Source: a virus. Taken from it: 10,630 bases of DNA. How positions within the stretch are numbered: position 1 is the stretch's first letter; the number at the start of each line of letters is the position of its first letter. The notes beneath the pieces were generated by a model. The model was given only the letters and a program-made list of their open reading frames with translations. It was not told where the DNA came from and did no database searches. The stretch lies in UHGV virus genome UHGV-0281862, one strand, 5' to 3'. A program made the translations under genes and the position numbers. Positions 3,069-9,260 of this stretch are shown here, in pieces.

Positions 3069-4064
3069 GTGACCGTGAGAGCGCTACTGACCCCTGAAAT
3101 TGCCCCGCGTATGGGGATCGTATTGTTCAGGCCCGGTTCAGAGCTGATGCCCCTGTTTATGCAGGGGCGTGTCCTGCTGGAGCCTGAGCCGGAACGTTAT
3201 TCATCTTTCGCCAGTGGTGCCGTTCCGGCGGCATCACAACCGCTGGCGGATGATCCTGCCGTTCGGGCCGTGTTCCGCAATGAGGCAGTGATTCGTCGTG
3301 CTGGTGGAGTGGAATGTCTTGAACGCTGGTTACTTCGTGAAAAAGGTTGCCAGTGGCCTCATTCCGACTGGCACAGCGAGAACATGACCACAATGCGACA
3401 CGCTCCGGGCGCAATCCGTCTGTGCTGGCACTGCGATAACCAGCTGCGCGATCAGTTCACGGAACGGCTGGAATCAATGGCAACGGATAACTGTACCCGC
3501 TGGGTGTTGTCTGTTGTGCGTCGGGATCTCGGTTTTGATGACAGTCACGTTGTGACAATGCCGGAACTGTGCTGGTGGCTGATTCGTAATGACCTGGCGG
3601 ATGCCTTACCGGAAAGTGCAGCCCGTAAGGCACTGAGATTACCGAAGCCTGTTGTGCCGTCTGTCACCCGGGAAAGTGACCTTGTGCCTTCGGTTCCTGC
3701 CACCAGCATCATCCAGGATAAAGCGAAAAAGGTGCTGGCGCTGAAAGTGGATCCGGAGTCGCCGGAGTCTTTTATGTTACGCCCAAAACGTCGCCGCTGG
3801 GTTAATGAAAAGTACACGCGCTGGGTTAAGACACAGCCGTGTGCATGTTGTGGAAAGCCCGCTGATGATCCCCACCACCTGATAGGCCACGGTCAGTGTG
3901 GAATGGGTACAAAAGCGCATGACCTTTTTGTGTTGCCTTTGTGCAGAAAGCATCACGACGAGCTGCATGCGGATACCGTGGCATTTGAAGAGAAGTATGG
4001 CTCTCAGCTGGAGCTGATATTTCGTTTTATCGATCGTGCGCTGGCAATTGGCGTACTGGCGTAA
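3069..4064 (+). CDS. DUF968-like prophage protein (YdfU-like) with C-terminal Cys/His HNH-like zinc-finger motif
   Basis: 331-aa ORF directly upstream of the Q-like gene, the position YdfU holds in the K-12 Qin prophage. C-terminal motif CACCGKPADDPHHL...CRKHHDELH resembles an HNH/zinc-binding fold. The start is uncertain (GTG 3069, GTG 3075 or ATG 3111; none has a good RBS). Confidence 0.6.
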   Translation: MTVRALLTPEIAPRMGIVLFRPGSELMPLFMQGRVLLEPEPERYSSFASGAVPAASQPLADDPAVRAVFRNEAVIRRAGGVECLERWLLREKGCQWPHSDWHSENMTTMRHAPGAIRLCWHCDNQLRDQFTERLESMATDNCTRWVLSVVRRDLGFDDSHVVTMPELCWWLIRNDLADALPESAARKALRLPKPVVPSVTRESDLVPSVPATSIIQDKAKKVLALKVDPESPESFMLRPKRRRWVNEKYTRWVKTQPCACCGKPADDPHHLIGHGQCGMGTKAHDLFVLPLCRKHHDELHADTVAFEEKYGSQLELIFRFIDRALAIGVLA

Positions 4065-4077
4065 GTGGAGAACGAGC

Positions 4078-4830
4078 ATGAACCTTGAAGCCTTACCGAA
4101 ATATTACTCCCCGAAATCTCCAAAACTGAGCGATGACGCACCGGCGACAGGCTCTGGTGGTTTAACAATTACGGATGTGATGGCTGCGCAGGGGATGGTG
4201 CAGTCAAAAGCACCGCTTGGGTTTGCTTTATTCCTGGCAAAAGTTGGTGTTCAGGATCCTCAGTTTGCGATTGAAGGTCTGCTCAATTACGCGATGGCAC
4301 TGGATAACCCGACATTGAATAAATTGAGTGAAGAAACCCGGCTACAGATCATTCCTTACCTTGTGAATTTTGCCTTTGCTGATTATTCCAGGTCTGCGGC
4401 AAGTAAGGCTCGCTGTGAGCATTGTGCTGGTACTGGATTTCATAATGTATTGCGCGAGGTGGTGAAACACTCCAGAAGCGGGGAATCTGTTATTAAGGAA
4501 GAGTGGGTGAAGGAACTATGTCAGCATTGTCATGGTAAGGGAGAAGTCAGCACAGCATGCAGAGGGTGCAAGGGTAAAGGTATTGTCCTGGATGAAAAAA
4601 GAACCCGGCTTCATGGCACGCCTGTTTATAAGGTTTGTGGGCGTTGCAATGGAAACCGGTTTAGCCGTTTACCAACCACACTGGCGCGGCTTCATGTCCA
4701 GAAGCTGGTACCAGACCTGACGGATTATCAGTGGTACAAAGGATATGCAGATGTCATTGATAAACTGGTTACAAAGTGCTGGCAGGAAGAAGCATATGCA
4801 GAGATACAATTGAGAAAGGTGACAAGATAA
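4078..4830 (+). CDS. late-gene antitermination protein Q-like (QuuQ/YdfT-like)
   Basis: 250 aa from ATG 4078 (GGAGA 8 nt upstream; the track's 4036 start lies inside the upstream gene). Sits immediately upstream of a promoter plus lambda-like pause element plus intrinsic terminator, the arrangement expected for Q. Has several CxxC pairs (CEHCAGTG, CQHCHGKG, CRGCKGKG, CGRCNG) consistent with a zinc-binding antiterminator. Length matches the K-12 Qin protein. Confidence 0.65.
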   Translation: MNLEALPKYYSPKSPKLSDDAPATGSGGLTITDVMAAQGMVQSKAPLGFALFLAKVGVQDPQFAIEGLLNYAMALDNPTLNKLSEETRLQIIPYLVNFAFADYSRSAASKARCEHCAGTGFHNVLREVVKHSRSGESVIKEEWVKELCQHCHGKGEVSTACRGCKGKGIVLDEKRTRLHGTPVYKVCGRCNGNRFSRLPTTLARLHVQKLVPDLTDYQWYKGYADVIDKLVTKCWQEEAYAEIQLRKVTR

Positions 4831-4861
4831 ATGGTTTTCGCCGAAGATGACGACATGATGC

Positions 4862-4908
4862 TTGCATTTTTCAAAAAATATGGATAAGATTTTCCCAACG
4901 ATGGGCTT
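4862..4908 (+). promoter_or_regulatory. putative late promoter (pR'-like) with promoter-proximal pause/Q-loading element
   Basis: -35 TTGCAT (4862-4867), 17-bp spacer, -10 TAAGAT (4885-4890). Immediately downstream is CCAACGATGGG, which matches my recollection of the lambda pR' initial transcribed region (CAACGATGGG) that induces the sigma70-dependent pause where Q engages RNA polymerase. Confidence 0.45.
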
Positions 4909-4936
4909 TGTATGTCTACCGTTGATAAGATTTAAG

Positions 4937-4961
4937 AACCCGCCGATGCGCGGGTTTTTTT
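4937..4961 (+). terminator. intrinsic terminator (tR'-like), ends a short late-leader transcript
   Basis: AACCCGC-CGATGC-GCGGGTT hairpin followed by a run of seven T; lies about 50-70 nt downstream of the putative pR' start. Confidence 0.6.
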
Positions 4962-5141
4962 GTACCCAGAATCCTGTGAGCTATACGGAAAGTACACAGA
5001 AAGGAAGGTGCGACCACAATTAATAACAAAATCTTAAAAATTGCACATGGCACTATTAGTTTACTAAATATTGTGTATTTTTTGTATTGCAGGATGACCC
5101 TGTAACGAAGTTTGCGTAACAGCATTTTGCTCTACGAGTTT

Positions 5142-5170
5142 GCCAGCCTCCCCCAGTGGCTGGCTTTTTT
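5142..5170 (+). terminator. intrinsic terminator
   Basis: GCCAGCC-tcccccagt-GGCTGGC hairpin followed by TTTTTT. Confidence 0.5.
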
Positions 5171-5172
5171 AT

Positions 5173-5292
5173 GTCTGTAGCGTCAAAGCAGCAATGTCGC
5201 TGGGGCGTCGTGCAATTGGCGTTGAGCTGGAGACTGAACGTTTTGAGCAGACGGTCAGGGAAGTTCAGGATTTAGTCAGTCAGAACGGATGA
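5173..5292 (+). pseudogene. possible C-terminal remnant of a DNA methyltransferase (no start codon or N-terminus)
   Basis: Open frame translating ...VCSVKAAMSLGRRAIGVELETERFEQTVREVQDLVSQNG*, resembling the C-terminal AdoMet-binding region of beta-class methyltransferases (...A..LGRR.IGIE...). It begins right after a terminator with no upstream coding sequence. Low certainty. Confidence 0.3.
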
Positions 5293-5332
5293 TATTGCAG
5301 GATTAGTTACGTACCGTTATTATCCTGCGCCC

Positions 5333-5408
5333 GGCCCTTTAGCTCAGTGGTGAGAGCGAGCGACTCATAATCGCCAGGTCGCTGGTTCAAATCCAGCAAG
5401 GGCCACCA
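5333..5408 (+). tRNA. ileZ: tRNA-Ile2-like, anticodon CAU (Met cannot be excluded from the anticodon alone)
   Basis: 76 nt with a manually folded cloverleaf: acceptor GGCCCTT/AAGGGCC, D-arm GCTC-AGTGGTGA-GAGC, anticodon loop CTCATAA (CAT), T-arm GCTGG-TTCAAAT-CCAGC, 3' ACCA. Closely resembles E. coli ileX-type tRNA. Confidence 0.8.
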
Positions 5409-5417
5409 TATCACATA

Positions 5418-5494
5418 CCGCCATTAGCTCATCGGGATAGAGCGTCAGCCTTCGAAGCTGGCTGTGCGGGGTTCAAGTCCCCGATGGCGGTCCA
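5418..5494 (+). tRNA. argN: tRNA-Arg, anticodon UCG
   Basis: 77 nt: acceptor CCGCCAT/ATGGCGG, D-arm GCTC-ATCGGGATA-GAGC, anticodon loop CTTCGAA (TCG), T-arm CGGGG-TTCAAGT-CCCCG, discriminator T, CCA. The gene symbol follows the ileZ-argN-argO trio of lambdoid/Stx phages; which Arg gene is argN and which is argO is uncertain. Confidence 0.8.
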
Positions 5495-5507
5495 TTATCA
5501 GCATCAT

Positions 5508-5584
5508 GCGTTGTTAGCTCAGCCGGACAGAGCAATTGCCTTCTAAGCAATCGGTCACTGGTTCGAATCCAGTACAACGCGCCA
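5508..5584 (+). tRNA. argO: tRNA-Arg, anticodon UCU
   Basis: 77 nt: acceptor GCGTTGT/ACAACGC, D-arm GCTC-AGCCGGACA-GAGC, anticodon loop CTTCTAA (TCT), T-arm ACTGG-TTCGAAT-CCAGT, discriminator G, CCA. Confidence 0.8.
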
Positions 5585-5599
5585 CACTTATTTTCCCTG

Positions 5600-5623
5600 G
5601 CTCGCTTTTGCGGGCTTTTTTTT
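5600..5623 (+). terminator. intrinsic terminator after the tRNA cluster
   Basis: GCTCGC-TTTT-GCGGGC hairpin (one G-U pair) followed by a run of eight T. Confidence 0.5.
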
Positions 5624-5629
5624 AAATGT

Positions 5630-5844
5630 CTCACAATTCAGGCGGTTGACTGTTGTCTGGTTTGCGGGGAGTTTGTTAAAAGAAACTGGCATGGTGAATC
5701 CCCCTGTGCGGAGGGGCAATCAGCGAGTAGGTATATGGGATAATCGCGGATTCAGGTGCTGGTACTGAATTCACCGGGAGGCACCCGGCACCATGCAATG
5801 GCACATAGCGCCACTCTCCAGCCCCTCTCCGGAGGGGCTTTTCT
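5630..5844 (+). ncRNA. candidate structured noncoding RNA module A (promoter-like box to intrinsic terminator)
   Basis: Begins CTCACAATTCAG-N4-TTGAC. Contains a conserved hairpin GCATGGTGAATCCCCCTGTGCGGAGGGGC, the conserved block CACCGGGAGGCACCCGGCACCATG, and ends in terminator GCCCCTC-TCCG-GAGGGGC-TTTTCT (5821-5844). All blocks recur in module B at 6098-6328 with divergent spacers. No conserved ORF. Confidence 0.35.
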
Positions 5845-6032
5845 GTGCCGGATACATCACAGTTTCTGGAACCTTAGGTACTACAGTATCAGTCAGGGTG
5901 CTATATTTTCAGATGTGATGAAAGCCTGTCAGCAGGCAGGGCGTATCGGAAATGACCCAGTAGAGAAAACGTTGACTCAGATACCGGTGCTGAGTTACCG
6001 GGAAACCGGCATCACATGACCGCTATCCTTCC

Positions 6033-6060
6033 AGGCCCATCCGCTCCGGTGGGCCTTTTT
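6033..6060 (+). terminator. intrinsic terminator between the two modules
   Basis: AGGCCCA-tccgctccgg-TGGGCCT hairpin followed by TTTTT. Confidence 0.5.
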
Positions 6061-6097
6061 ACTGCAGAAAACAGGTTCCCCGTTAAATGCTATGTTG

Positions 6098-6328
6098 CTC
6101 ACAATTCAGTAAGTTGACAGTTGCCTGTCAGACTGGGCATTTGTTAAAAAAATTTCGCATGGTGAATCCCCCTGAGCGGAGGGGCGACTGGTGACGGTAT
6201 AATCTCTGATTATCAAAACGAGAATGACGCGGGTTTAGTGGCACCGGGCTGAACTCACCGGGAGGCACCCGGCACCATGTGCATGATGATACAGATACGC
6301 GGCTTTAGCCCCTCTCCGGAGGGGTTTT
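6098..6328 (+). ncRNA. candidate structured noncoding RNA module B (paralogous to module A)
   Basis: Begins CTCACAATTCAG-N4-TTGACA. Shares TTTGTTAAAA, GCATGGTGAATCCCCCTGAGCGGAGGGGC and CACCGGGAGGCACCCGGCACCATG with module A; contains a perfect TATAAT at 6198-6203; ends in terminator CCCCTC-TCCG-GAGGGG-TTTTCTT (6309-6328). Small ORFs inside differ between copies, so protein coding is unlikely. Confidence 0.35.
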
Positions 6329-6559
6329 CTTGTGGGCAAAAAAAGCCCGCGCTGGGAGACGCGGGCGGCAAGGAATAAACAATAAAACGTGAAGTAATAT
6401 TTCAGCTGGCGAATAATACCCCATAGTAATCACTCTGCGCAACTGCGCGGTCTTTTTCGAATTGCGGGCTGTCGTCTCTCTTCTGCCATTGTCCTGTAAC
6501 TTCCGGACTTCAGCCCGCTCCTTATTTTACTCACAATATTATCCCGGCCGGGAGGATTC

Positions 6560-6787
6560 ATGGCATTTAAACACTATGACGTGGTCAGGGCGGTATCGCC
6601 GTCAGACCTTGCGAAACGACTGACACAAAAACTGAAGGAGGGCTGGCAGCCGTTTGGTAGTCCGGTGGCCATAACCCCTTATACCCTGATGCAGGCGATT
6701 GCAGCAGAAGGTGATGTGGTGGTCAGTGGTGCAACTGAGCCGGATTGGTACTACGTCATCGTACTGGCCCGGCATTCCAGGCCATAA
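6560..6787 (+). CDS. DUF1737-like small protein (stand-alone; possibly the N-terminal remnant of a NanS-p/YjhS-type esterase gene)
   Basis: 75 aa; RBS GGGAGG 5 nt upstream of ATG 6560. The protein resembles the N-terminal domain found on prophage 9-O-acetylesterases, which sit just upstream of the lysis genes in Stx and related phages. No esterase domain follows. Confidence 0.55.
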   Translation: MAFKHYDVVRAVSPSDLAKRLTQKLKEGWQPFGSPVAITPYTLMQAIAAEGDVVVSGATEPDWYYVIVLARHSRP

Positions 6788-6991
6788 AAGACAGTCTGGC
6801 AGTGGGACTAAATGCACTGACGCTGATGGATATTACCAAAAATGTAACGTATGGCGTTGAGATAGAAAGTCTGGCGCTGGAGATAAATGCACCGGCATCA
6901 TCATAAAAAGTGAGCCAGTCAAATGGAAGGTATCGTTAAACTCACCGGTAGTGTCAGTGGGTCGTCTGAGACGCTTGCATGAGTTATCAGA

Positions 6992-7020
6992 GCCATCAGT
7001 AGTTAACTGGTGGCTTTTTT
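6992..7020 (+). terminator. intrinsic terminator immediately upstream of the holin gene
   Basis: GCCATCAG-tagttaa-CTGGTGGC hairpin (one G-U pair) followed by TTTTTT. It lies inside the longest version of the holin ORF, which argues for the downstream start at 7056. Confidence 0.5.
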
Positions 7021-7055
7021 ATTGTTTTCAGCTTCCGGATAACGGGAGACGGGGT

Positions 7056-7271
7056 ATGGACCAGATGGAAAAAATCACAACAGGTGTGTCATACACCACG
7101 TCAGCGGTGGGAACGGGCTACTGGTTCCTGCAGTTGCTGGACAGGGTTTCCCCGTCTCAGTGGGCGGCAATAGGCGTGCTGGGGAGTCTGCTGTTTGGGC
7201 TGCTGACATATCTGACTAACCTGTATTTCAAAATCAGAGAGGACCGTCGTAAGGCGGCACGGGGAGAGTAA
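7056..7271 (+). CDS. S21-type pinholin (class II holin) with dual-start motif
   Basis: 71 aa: [71 protein letters not shown], very similar to the phage 21 S pinholin (two transmembrane domains, C-terminus ...[20 protein letters not shown]). Met1/Met4 give the antiholin/holin dual start; RBS GGGAGACGGGG upstream. Confidence 0.85.
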
Positions 7272-7275
7272 TTCA

Positions 7276-7620
7276 ATGACTCAAAACTATGAACTGATTG
7301 TGAAAGGGATCCGCAATTTTGAGAATAAAGTTACGGTAACTTTAGCATTACAGGACAAAGAACGCTTTGACGGTGAAATTTTTGACCTGGACATCTCGCT
7401 GGACCGTGTTGAAGGTGCTGCGCTGGAGTTTTATGAGGCAGCGGCCAGAAGGAGCATCAGACAGGTCTTCCTGGATGTCGCTGCCGGGTTATGTGAAGGG
7501 GATGAGCAGTCGCCGGAAAAGCGCCCCGTAATTTTAGAGGCGCAGAATGTATGGATAACCTACAAAGGAAAGCTACCGGGAAGGATTACTGGTTCCCTGA
7601 AGACTCCGCCGAAATGGTAG
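7276..7620 (+). CDS. hypothetical protein inserted between holin and endolysin (possibly the YdfR-like protein found at this position in K-12 Qin)
   Basis: 114-aa ORF starting 5 nt after the holin stop, with GGAGAG 7 nt upstream. No catalytic motif recognised. Its 3' end overlaps a convergent minus-strand ORF by 35 nt. Confidence 0.5.
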   Translation: MTQNYELIVKGIRNFENKVTVTLALQDKERFDGEIFDLDISLDRVEGAALEFYEAAARRSIRQVFLDVAAGLCEGDEQSPEKRPVILEAQNVWITYKGKLPGRITGSLKTPPKW

Positions 7621-7963: not shown

Positions 7964-8497
7964 ATGAACGCAAAAATCAAATACGGCCTGTCAGCTGCAG
8001 TTCTGGCGCTGATTGGAGCAGGCGCATCAGCTCCTCAGATACTTGACCAGTTTCTGGATGAAAAAGAGGGTAACCACACTACGGCATACCGCGATGGTTC
8101 CGGCAACTGGACCATCTGTCGGGGGGCCACGATGGTGGATGGAAAACCCGTTTTTCCCGGTATGAAACTGTCGAAGGAAAAATGCGACCAGGTCAACGCC
8201 ATTGAGCGTGATAAGGCGCTGGCATGGGTGGAGAAAAACATCAAAGTGCCATTGAGCGAACCCCAGAAAGCGGGGATCGCGTCATTCTGTCCGTACAACA
8301 TTGGTCCCGGTAAGTGTTTCCCGTCGACGTTTTATAAACGAATTAATGCAGGTGATCGCAGGGGAGCGTGTGAGGCGATTCGCTGGTGGATTAAGGACGG
8401 TGGCAGAGACTGCCGTATTCGTTCAAACAACTGCTACGGTCAGGTATCCCGTCGTGACCAGGAGAGCGCGCTGGCGTGCTGGGGTATCGACAGATAA
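7964..8497 (+). CDS. SAR endolysin (phage 21 R-type lysozyme, GH24 family)
   Basis: 177 aa. N-terminal weakly hydrophobic Gly/Ala-rich segment (YGLSAAVLALIGAGASA) typical of a signal-anchor-release domain, followed by the lysozyme catalytic triad spacing E-x8-D-x5-T (EGNHTTAYRDGSGNWT). Pairs with the pinholin. Confidence 0.85.
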   Translation: MNAKIKYGLSAAVLALIGAGASAPQILDQFLDEKEGNHTTAYRDGSGNWTICRGATMVDGKPVFPGMKLSKEKCDQVNAIERDKALAWVEKNIKVPLSEPQKAGIASFCPYNIGPGKCFPSTFYKRINAGDRRGACEAIRWWIKDGGRDCRIRSNNCYGQVSRRDQESALACWGIDR

Positions 8498-8587: not shown

Positions 8588-8620
8588 AAAACCCCGTTTG
8601 TTGGCACCAAGCGGGGTTTT
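8588..8620 (+). terminator. terminator-like hairpin between the endolysin and spanin genes
   Basis: AAAACCCCG-tttgTTGGcaCCAAg-CGGGGTTTT: a perfect 9-bp outer stem with an inner 4-bp stem, followed by T residues. The flanking A-run and T-run could allow function in either direction. Confidence 0.35.
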
Positions 8621-8795: not shown

Positions 8796-9260
8796 ATGAA
8801 CCGCGTACTGTGCGTGGTCATCATTGCCCTGCTGGTGGCCTGTGGTGCGCTTAGTCTGGGGCTGAATCATTACCGTGATAACGCCATTACCTACAAAGCC
8901 CAGCGCGACAAAAATGTCAGAGAACTGAAGCTGGCGAACGCGGCAATTACTGACATGCAGATGCGTCAGCGTGATGTTGCTGCGCTCGATGCAAAATACA
9001 CGAAGGAGTTAGCTGATGCGAAAGCTGAAAATGATGCTCTGCGTGATGATGTTGCCGCTGGTCGTCGTCGGTTGCACATCAAAGCAGTCTGTCAGTCAGT
9101 GCGTGAAGCCACCACCGCCTCCGGCGTGGATAATGCAGCCTCCCCCCGACTGGCAGACACCGCTGAACGGGATTATTTCACCCTCAGAGCGCGACTGATA
9201 ATAATGCAAAAACAACTTGAAGGGGCACAGCTATACATTCGAGAGCAATGCCTCAGATAA
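8796..9260 (+). CDS. Rz: Rz inner-membrane spanin subunit (lambda-type)
   Basis: 154 aa with an N-terminal transmembrane segment. The sequence from [17 protein letters not shown]... through ...MQKQLEG matches my recollection of lambda Rz nearly residue for residue. Confidence 0.9.
9016..9198 (+). CDS. Rz1: Rz1 outer-membrane lipoprotein spanin subunit, embedded in Rz in the +1 frame
   Basis: 60 aa, [60 protein letters not shown]: lipobox VVGC, proline-rich mature part, essentially lambda Rz1. RBS AAGGAG upstream of ATG 9016. Confidence 0.85.

Follow-up and report, generated by a model that had tools for sequence, protein, structure and literature searches.

UHGV virus genome UHGV-0281862 (10,630 nt, all of which is referred to here as the window) probably represents, judging from its gene content and homologies, the region for late control and cargo ('moron') genes in a lambdoid Escherichia coli prophage of the Shiga toxin (Stx) phage type from which stx is absent. 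Its + strand carries, in order, KilA-N and DUF968 genes, a Q antiterminator gene (4078-4830), a 2.2-kb stretch, and the holin, DUF1327, lysozyme and Rz genes. The late promoter, pause signal and hairpin terminators that follow Q are real, and the region is one of ordinary lambda-like late control. The 2.2 kb hold the small RNA (sRNA) gene StxS, a cluster of three tRNAs, three STnc100-family genes, a convergent sRNA on the minus strand, and remnants of a methylase and a nanS-p gene. By homology, almost all of the terminators close small genes (StxS, the three tRNAs or the three STnc100-type sRNAs).

The late promoter, its Q protein and the terminators

The elements that define the late control module are as follows:

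4078-4830, + strand: Q antiterminator gene, 250 aa from the ATG at 4078 (the listed open reading frame begins at GTG 4036)
4862-4890, + strand: pR'-type late promoter, with -35 TTGCAT at 4862-4867, a 17-nt spacer and -10 TAAGAT at 4885-4890
4897-4905, + strand: predicted start A4897, beginning a sigma-70-dependent pause-inducing -10-like AACGAT followed by GGG, identical to lambda +1 to +9

The Q protein matched Pfam Antiterm (PF03589) in a profile search (E = 8.9e-53), and phmmer aligned both of its halves with the structure of lambda Q (PDB 7UBM, E = 1.7e-37). The alignment pairs residue 15 of the query with the first residue of lambda Q, which places the real start at the ATG at 4078 and gives 250 aa. 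The protein also carries an insertion of ~40 aa with an additional DnaJ-type CXXCXGXG zinc-finger repeat (Pfam DnaJ_CXXCXGXG, E = 2e-8), which is absent from lambda Q (207 aa). Phages Ayreon and Lys8385Vzw encode the same 250-aa Q. The short 144-aa Q of the Q933 type is a distant relative of Q21 (PDB 6P18, E = 7.5e-8). The label 'Q21', which the literature gives to the Q of Stx2c phages, was rejected: the Q found here matches lambda Q structures, and it is the 144-aa Q933 type that matches Q21.

The promoter begins 32 nt past the Q stop codon (4830). An earlier note on this DNA had described a sigma-70-like site, TTGCAT-17-TAAGAT, downstream of a Q-like gene, followed by a match to the lambda pR' pause element, and both claims were borne out: Q belongs to the lambda family, the site aligns with lambda pR', and the 10-mer CAACGATGGG (4896-4905, present without mismatch only once in the window) also stands in the lambda reference at an equal offset. 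The window reads TTGCAT-17-TAAGAT-TTTCC-CAACGATGGG where lambda reads TTGACT-17-TAAATT-TGACT-CAACGATGGG, with the same spacer length. In lambda (locus L001), 194 nt separate the first A of AACGAT (44587) from the T run of tR'. Since this is the length of 6S RNA, that A is lambda +1, and by analogy the start in the window is predicted at A4897. Lambda biology would likewise place the sigma-70-dependent pause near +16/+17, at 4912/4913.

Ayreon, Stx2c phages and the Stx1a phage Lys8385Vzw all share the promoter with 100% conservation, and the sequence from the end of Q through the first hairpin is identical in these phages except for the hairpin loop (in Ayreon and Stx2c). Counted from the alignment, the spacer, which is the region of the Q-binding element, equals lambda at 11 of 17 positions. 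The module resembles the late module of lambda (Q, pR', qut, tR' and 6S RNA) in its lambda-family Q, in a promoter just past Q with a 17-nt spacer, in AACGATGGG, identical at +1 to +9, and in an intrinsic terminator followed by lysis genes on the same strand. It departs from lambda in the 250-aa Q with its zinc-finger insertion, in the spacer and the -35-like TTGACT, and in its dimensions: the first terminator lies at +41 to +65 here versus +194, and ~2.1 kb of cargo precede the holin versus ~0.4 kb in lambda.

A strict terminator scan of 4896-7061 found eight sites on the + strand, numbered here in order except for the weakest, which is called the eighth:

Hairpin 1: 4934-4959, + strand, -13.5 kcal/mol, run of seven T's
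Hairpin 2: 5142-5164, + strand, -13.3 kcal/mol, run of six T's
Hairpin 3: 5599-5616, + strand, -10.9 kcal/mol, run of eight T's
Hairpin 4: 5820-5839, + strand, -16.7 kcal/mol
Hairpin 5: 6033-6056, + strand, -15.7 kcal/mol
Hairpin 6: 6308-6325, + strand, -13.7 kcal/mol
Hairpin 7: 6990-7016, + strand, -15.8 kcal/mol
Eighth, weaker hairpin: 6435-6456 (hairpin proper 6435-6450), + strand, CTGCGCAACTGCGCGG then TCTTTTT, -8.6 kcal/mol

In 500 dinucleotide-preserving shuffles, the same scan gave a mean of 0.086 sites (sd 0.29, maximum 2). The scanner is conservative, as it misses even lambda's own tR'. All seven hairpin-plus-T-run sites of the earlier note exist, each a compact hairpin rich in G+C, and the eighth has a conserved, stronger counterpart at the corresponding place in Stx2a and Stx1a phages. 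In the other 8.5 kb of the window, the strict scan listed only two + strand sites (8592 and 10510) and one minus-strand site (6366-6345), and a general terminator scan of the whole window found 25 sites against 11.2 +/- 4.2 expected.

In 63 IMG/VR loci that share this holin, a median of only 1 strict terminator (range 0-6) lay in the 2.2 kb before the holin gene, presumably because an intact nanS-p gene usually takes up the space. Most of 80 IMG/VR loci with this holin carry other Q types, so sorting them by the pR' motif was uninformative. Five of these relative positions are also occupied by hairpins in the Stx2a phage VT2phi_272, and four of the five in Lys8385Vzw (Stx1a), from which the tRNA cluster and its terminator are absent. 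The hairpin count is higher in the window because two extra STnc100-family units sit at the position of stx.

The earlier note had read the 2.2 kb as one long non-coding late leader, in which repeated tR'-type terminators would serve only to make lysis strictly dependent on Q and a product of 50-70 nt would be the counterpart of StxS. We regard this as quite improbable. At six of the eight hairpins a recognisable gene ends (among StxS, the tRNA cluster and the three STnc100-family RNAs), and what had been called a leader holds StxS, tRNAs, sRNA genes and gene remnants. It is true that the hairpins are real and all on the + strand, and that hairpin 1 looks strong and canonical, with a conserved stem and a 66-nt transcript that folds well (z = -3.2). 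StxS, however, ends at hairpin 2 rather than hairpin 1, and its 258-nt precursor in strain Sakai spans hairpin 1, which is evidently read through there.

StxS and the two promoter-proximal hairpins

Two features follow the promoter directly:

4937-4961, + strand: hairpin 1, AACCCGC-CGATGC-GCGGGTT and a run of seven T's, a promoter-proximal tR' candidate at +41 to +65 from the predicted start
5086-5170, + strand: StxS homologue (processed part), with the RNase E motif GUAUU at 5084-5088 and, as terminator, hairpin 2 (5142-5164) plus six T's to 5170

On the strength of its sequence, StxS itself is encoded here and ends at hairpin 2. Over hairpin 2 and the 234 nt before it, identity to the StxS region of Sakai Sp5 and VT2phi_272 is 95-99%, and the processed part (5086-5170) agrees with E. 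coli O157 Sakai at 84 of 85 bases, counted from the sequences. Positions 4937-5170 correspond to +27 to +258 of the long StxS precursor, within a longer segment (4936/4937-5622) that is 95-98% identical to Sakai Sp5 and VT2phi_272 (95% for Sp5).

Sy et al. 2020 (PMC7547250) report a mapped pR' start in Sakai, a Term-seq 3' end 258 nt downstream of it, and RNase E cleavage at +173, between GU and AUU of the GUAUU motif, that yields stable StxS, an Hfq-bound RNA that activates rpoS. A start 258 nt before the T run of GCCAGCC...GGCTGGC in Sakai would lie ~7 nt past a TATCAT -10 and puts GUAUU at +174. Because this geometry fits the published precursor, that hairpin is the StxS terminator and corresponds to 5142-5170 of the window. 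StxS is not a mere analogue of a short promoter-proximal transcript, as the earlier note had it: it is encoded here and ends at hairpin 2.

Sy et al. 2020 (PMC7547250) associate StxS with the short 144-aa Q, as a correlation and not a rule. Here, StxS follows the gene for a 250-aa lambda-family Q, a combination that is not rare: 176 complete E. coli genomes have it, as does the Stx1a phage Lys8385Vzw (MT225100), which is 99.4% identical to the window over 4830-5179 (end of Q, pR', hairpin 1, StxS and hairpin 2). In Lys8385Vzw, stx1AB comes directly after hairpin 2, whereas tRNAs and sRNA genes do so here.

The mosaic junction with Stx2a phages falls exactly at hairpin 1. On the left side, the window agrees with phages that have lambda-type Q (mEp460, Ayreon and Stx2c phages); on the right side, it agrees with phages that have the 144-aa Q933 type. 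Ayreon and the Stx2c phages retain the stem of the hairpin but not its loop, and Ayreon, which annotates the hairpin as a 'terminator', has a second copy further downstream, after another gene. The counterpart in Sakai Sp5 (670-694 of locus L004) lies at +27 to +51 of the 258-nt StxS precursor and must be read through at least partly in Sakai, because the precursor spans it. We found no mention of this counterpart in the parts of Sy et al. 2020 (PMC7547250) that were consulted, and an RNA of ~50 nt ending there may have been overlooked. Although hairpin 1 has the look of a strong terminator, Sakai makes StxS across it.

One explanation is that hairpin 1 is inefficient in vivo, being mainly a conserved site of recombination or a structural element of the early transcript, in which case hairpin 2 would be the effective tR' and the constitutive product would be a StxS precursor of ~274 nt together with its processed 3' fragment. 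The Sakai arrangement, in which the 258-nt RNA and abundant processed StxS arise without Q from a transcript that contains the hairpin at +27 to +51, is in line with this idea, as is the exact breakpoint at hairpin 1 between Q modules of the unrelated lambda Q and Q21 families. We nonetheless consider it rather unlikely, given the five G-C pairs, A-U extension and seven U's of hairpin 1, a stem conserved while the loop varies, and the second copy that follows another gene in Ayreon and is an annotated terminator. A product of 50-65 nt would, moreover, escape standard RNA-seq libraries.

As a tentative proposal, held at somewhat less than even confidence, hairpin 1 may be a first gate (tR'1) shared by lambda-Q and Q21-like modules. 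Only polymerases that get past this gate would then produce StxS, and the 50-65-nt RNA, so far overlooked, would be the major constitutive product of pR'. The frequency of read-through would set the StxS level of the lysogen, and it might vary between Q modules according to the sequence near the promoter.

RNA genes and gene remnants ahead of the lysis cassette

Hairpin 2 is followed by a methylase remnant and a tRNA unit:

5179-5292, + strand: 3' remnant of a DNA methyltransferase gene, 37 codons, recognised from its translation
5295-5623, + strand: tRNA unit, with a candidate promoter (TTGCAG at 5295-5300, 17-nt spacer, TATTAT at 5318-5323) and hairpin 3 (5599-5623) as terminator
5333-5408, + strand: tRNA-Ile2 (CAT), found by ARAGORN and Rfam; ileZ in Sakai
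5418-5494, + strand: tRNA-Arg (TCG), found by ARAGORN and Rfam; argN in Sakai
5508-5584, + strand: tRNA-Arg (TCT), found by ARAGORN and Rfam; argO in Sakai

The methylase gene is annotated as partial in E. coli genomes and is intact (1050 bp) in a UTI89 prophage. TTGCAG-17-TATTAT, which ends 9 nt before the first tRNA, is a candidate promoter for the tRNAs, and a start site in the homologous Sp5 region appears to drive them (Sy et al. 2020, PMC7547250).

Three units of the STnc100/PasD family come next:

5653-5846, + strand: STnc100 copy 1, RNA ~5689-5846; promoter-like TTGTCT-N18-TAAAAG with an upstream TG at 5653-5682; hairpin 4 at 5820-5846
5897-6061, + strand: c3, a diverged third STnc100/PasD member, RNA ~5912-6061; extended -10 TGcTATATT at 5899-5907; hairpin 5 at 6033-6060
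6121-6331, + strand: STnc100 copy 2, RNA ~6157-6331; promoter-like TTGCCT-N18-TAAAAA at 6121-6150; hairpin 6 at 6307-6331

Copies 1 and 2 scored well above the gathering score of Rfam RF02076 (STnc100; 47 bits), with 136.3 bits (5660-5850) and 161 bits (6128-6337), respectively. Like other members of the STnc100 (RF02076)/PasD family, both have the 5' sequence GCAUGGUGAAUCC, a closing helix, inner hairpins and a terminator; what differs is that three units stand in tandem here, with the middle one below the Rfam threshold. For PasD2, the 5' end was sized by experiment (Pearl Mizrahi et al., table S6), and its sequence, GCAUGGUGAAUCC, lines up with 5689 and 6157. Conserved -10-like sites with an upstream TG precede these two positions by 6-7 nt, and c3 has TGcTATATT, a good extended -10, at the equivalent place. 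Copy 2 is the homologue of the STnc100 copy just 3' of stx2B (84.5% identity over 181 nt to VT2phi_272); one STnc100 copy adjoins the 3' end of stx2B in Stx2 phages (PMC12370729). STnc100 copies are expressed in uninduced enterohaemorrhagic E. coli.

The middle unit, c3, falls short of the RF02076 gathering score (30.1 bits, E = 0.0018) and is probably a diverged relative. Its minimum-energy fold has the architecture of copy 1, the closing and inner helices being kept through two-sided changes with most helix positions differing. It is present at 90-100% identity in 7 compared loci, with a 90%-identical variant in locus L018. That c3 represents a diverged STnc100/PasD subfamily is a separate part of the proposal made above for hairpin 1 and is put forward just as tentatively.

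The repeat CTCACAATTCAG precedes both STnc100 copies (5630-5641 and 6098-6109), and a near-identical GTCACAATTCAG follows stx2B in VT2phi_272. The copies of CTCACAATTCAG in the window contain CUCACA, a reported common target motif of PasD.

Beyond copy 2, the window contains an sRNA candidate in the opposite orientation and what is left of an esterase gene:

6338-6407, minus strand: convergent sRNA candidate of ~67 nt, with -10 TATTAT (ATAATA on the + strand, 6413-6418) and a terminator at 6366-6345 plus seven T's
6560-6906, + strand: internally deleted remnant of nanS-p (SASA esterase), comprising a DUF1737 open reading frame (6560-6787) and an out-of-frame 3' end (6745-6906)

The terminator of the minus-strand candidate has a predicted energy of -15.5 kcal/mol. 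This RNA resembles an sRNA seen by RIL-seq in enteropathogenic E. coli, from the E2348C_1409-1408 intergenic region, and its sole Rfam match is a weak one (OmrA-B, 25 bits). It holds the position of AsxR in Stx2 phages with a different sequence. AsxR, AgvB and Esr41 were rejected as identities, since no Rfam match to any of them reached E <= 1 anywhere in the window and AsxR of Stx2 phages has another sequence.

The nanS-p remnant was identified by its DUF1737 domain (Pfam, E = 2e-16) and by its 3' end, which aligns with the end of the esterase gene of E2348/69; in UTI89, nanS-p is annotated as a partial gene. A 29-nt direct repeat with 79% identity lies within the remnant (6789-6817 and 6864-6892) and may mark the deletion or a rearrangement of nanS-p.

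The stretch ends with hairpin 7 and the lysis genes:

6989-7020, + strand: pre-holin hairpin 7, GAGCCATCAG-TAGTTAA-CTGGTGGCTT plus a T run, ending 36 nt before the holin start codon
7056-7271, + strand: phage-21-type holin (Pfam PF04971)
7276-7620, + strand: DUF1327/YdfR (Pfam PF07041)
7964-8497, + strand: lysozyme (Pfam PF00959)
8796-9260, + strand: Rz (Pfam PF03245)

Hairpin 7 occurs in 23 distinct variants upstream of near-identical S21-type holins, and its helix is kept through A-U/G-C and C-G/G-C exchanges at four pairs. There is no obvious promoter between hairpin 7 and the holin gene. The possibility that hairpin 7 belongs to a PasA/PasC sRNA was rejected, as PasA, which E2348/69 carries between nanS-p and the holin gene, is encoded there on the other strand, and the window alignment contains no homologue of it. 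Between the lysozyme and Rz genes lies a strong 13-bp palindromic hairpin, AAAACCCCG...CGGGGTTTT (8588-8620), which is also found in UTI89 and could be a terminator on either strand.

Taken as a whole, this order closely follows that of Stx phages, whose late region runs Q, pR', StxS, tR', ileZ-argN-argO, stx2AB, STnc100 convergent with AsxR, nanS-p and S R Rz. As in Sp5/933W, hairpin 1, StxS, its terminator, the methylase remnant, and the three tRNAs with their terminator occupy 4937-5622, and an STnc100 copy, a convergent minus-strand sRNA, a conserved hairpin and the start of nanS-p then follow in the same order. In contrast to Stx phages, the window has no stx but two further STnc100-family units in its place, its Q and pR' are of the lambda type rather than the Q21-family 144-aa Q933 type found in Sp5/933W, its minus-strand sRNA is not AsxR or AgvB, its nanS-p is internally deleted, and PasA is absent. 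Morons are cargo genes that the lysogen expresses and that each have a promoter and a terminator to themselves (Juhala et al. 2000, cited in Tree et al. 2014); the units described here resemble them in their location downstream of pR' and in their promoter-gene-terminator form, but differ in that the cargo is almost entirely RNA genes.

Late control and the state of the prophage

With a lambda-family Q, a lambda-like pR' and pause, many terminators and no obvious later promoter, Q-dependent expression of the lysis genes is the natural reading, and Q-dependent read-through is the mechanism that we infer as best. It would work as it does in lambda and the Stx phages. The pR' promoter would fire constitutively, and the pause at the initially transcribed AACGAT-GGG would be the point at which Q loads onto RNA polymerase. 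Without Q, transcripts would stop at hairpin 1 (~65 nt), and those that read through would stop at hairpin 2 as a StxS-containing RNA of ~274 nt, to be trimmed by RNase E at GUAUU; how efficient each hairpin would be is judged from the same phages. The tRNA cluster, the three STnc100/PasD sRNAs and the minus-strand sRNA would be self-contained units, each with its own promoter-like site and terminator, and the cargo terminators would permit their expression in the lysogen without reading into the lysis genes, hairpin 7 being the last barrier. After induction, polymerase modified by Q would ignore all of these terminators and reach holin, lysozyme and Rz. Tree et al. 2014 describe convergent sRNA pairs in a moron site downstream of a Q-antiterminated pR', which is exactly the arrangement seen here and speaks for the cargo-region reading. 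The overall interpretation of the earlier note is partly upheld: it is supported as to the Q family, the promoter with its pause, and the terminators, but not, in the form given, as to the leader and the analogue of StxS.

Several observations weigh against this reading. The -35 hexamer of pR' fits the consensus at 3 of 6 positions, and a generic sigma-70 scan does not list pR', so the call rests on homology to lambda and not on consensus strength. The proposed sRNA and tRNA promoters are likewise weak consensus matches, omitted by the generic scan, and homology was used for them instead. The Q-binding element is not recognisable from sequence, and TTGACT, the -35-like element of the lambda paused complex, is TTTTCC here. 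The U tracts are degraded in some variants of the pre-holin hairpin. The methylase and nanS-p remnants suggest that the prophage may be partly decayed, and the mosaic at 4000-7300 is not collinear (>=80%) in any of 5,426 complete E. coli genomes; the best coverage in one genome is 77%, in 4 pieces. Each half is common, with the Q-StxS junction in 176 complete genomes and the part from the tRNAs to the holin in 227.

These last points bear on whether the region is an inert relic, its features being inherited scars of a decayed prophage that have no current regulatory role. The truncated methylase and nanS-p genes and the absence of a collinear match to the exact mosaic among the 5,426 genomes would both fit such a relic, as would strain PV15-279, in which the same junction lies beside a truncated Q gene and insertion sequence elements. 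The open reading frames of Q, holin, lysozyme and Rz are intact, however; Q, pR' and hairpin 1 are 96-99% identical to those of the plaque-forming phage Ayreon, of phage mEp460 and of the Stx1a phage Lys8385Vzw; and compensatory changes preserve both the sRNA folds and the pre-holin hairpin. A relic is, in our view, improbable.

All components of the region have been described before, and the novelty of this analysis is low: it refines current understanding and does not change it. The minor new points are c3 as a diverged unit, the covarying pairs of the pre-holin hairpin, and hairpin 1 as a junction common to two Q families. For annotation, three corrections follow: StxS is present in a prophage that lacks the toxin, downstream of a lambda-type Q; three STnc100-family genes occupy the position of stx; and the pre-holin hairpin is conserved through covariation. 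As read here, the window is a clear example of a lambdoid prophage that packs RNA genes expressed in the lysogen between a Q-controlled late promoter and the lysis genes, with each RNA unit capped by its own terminator, and the same layout governs the expression of toxin and StxS in Stx phages.

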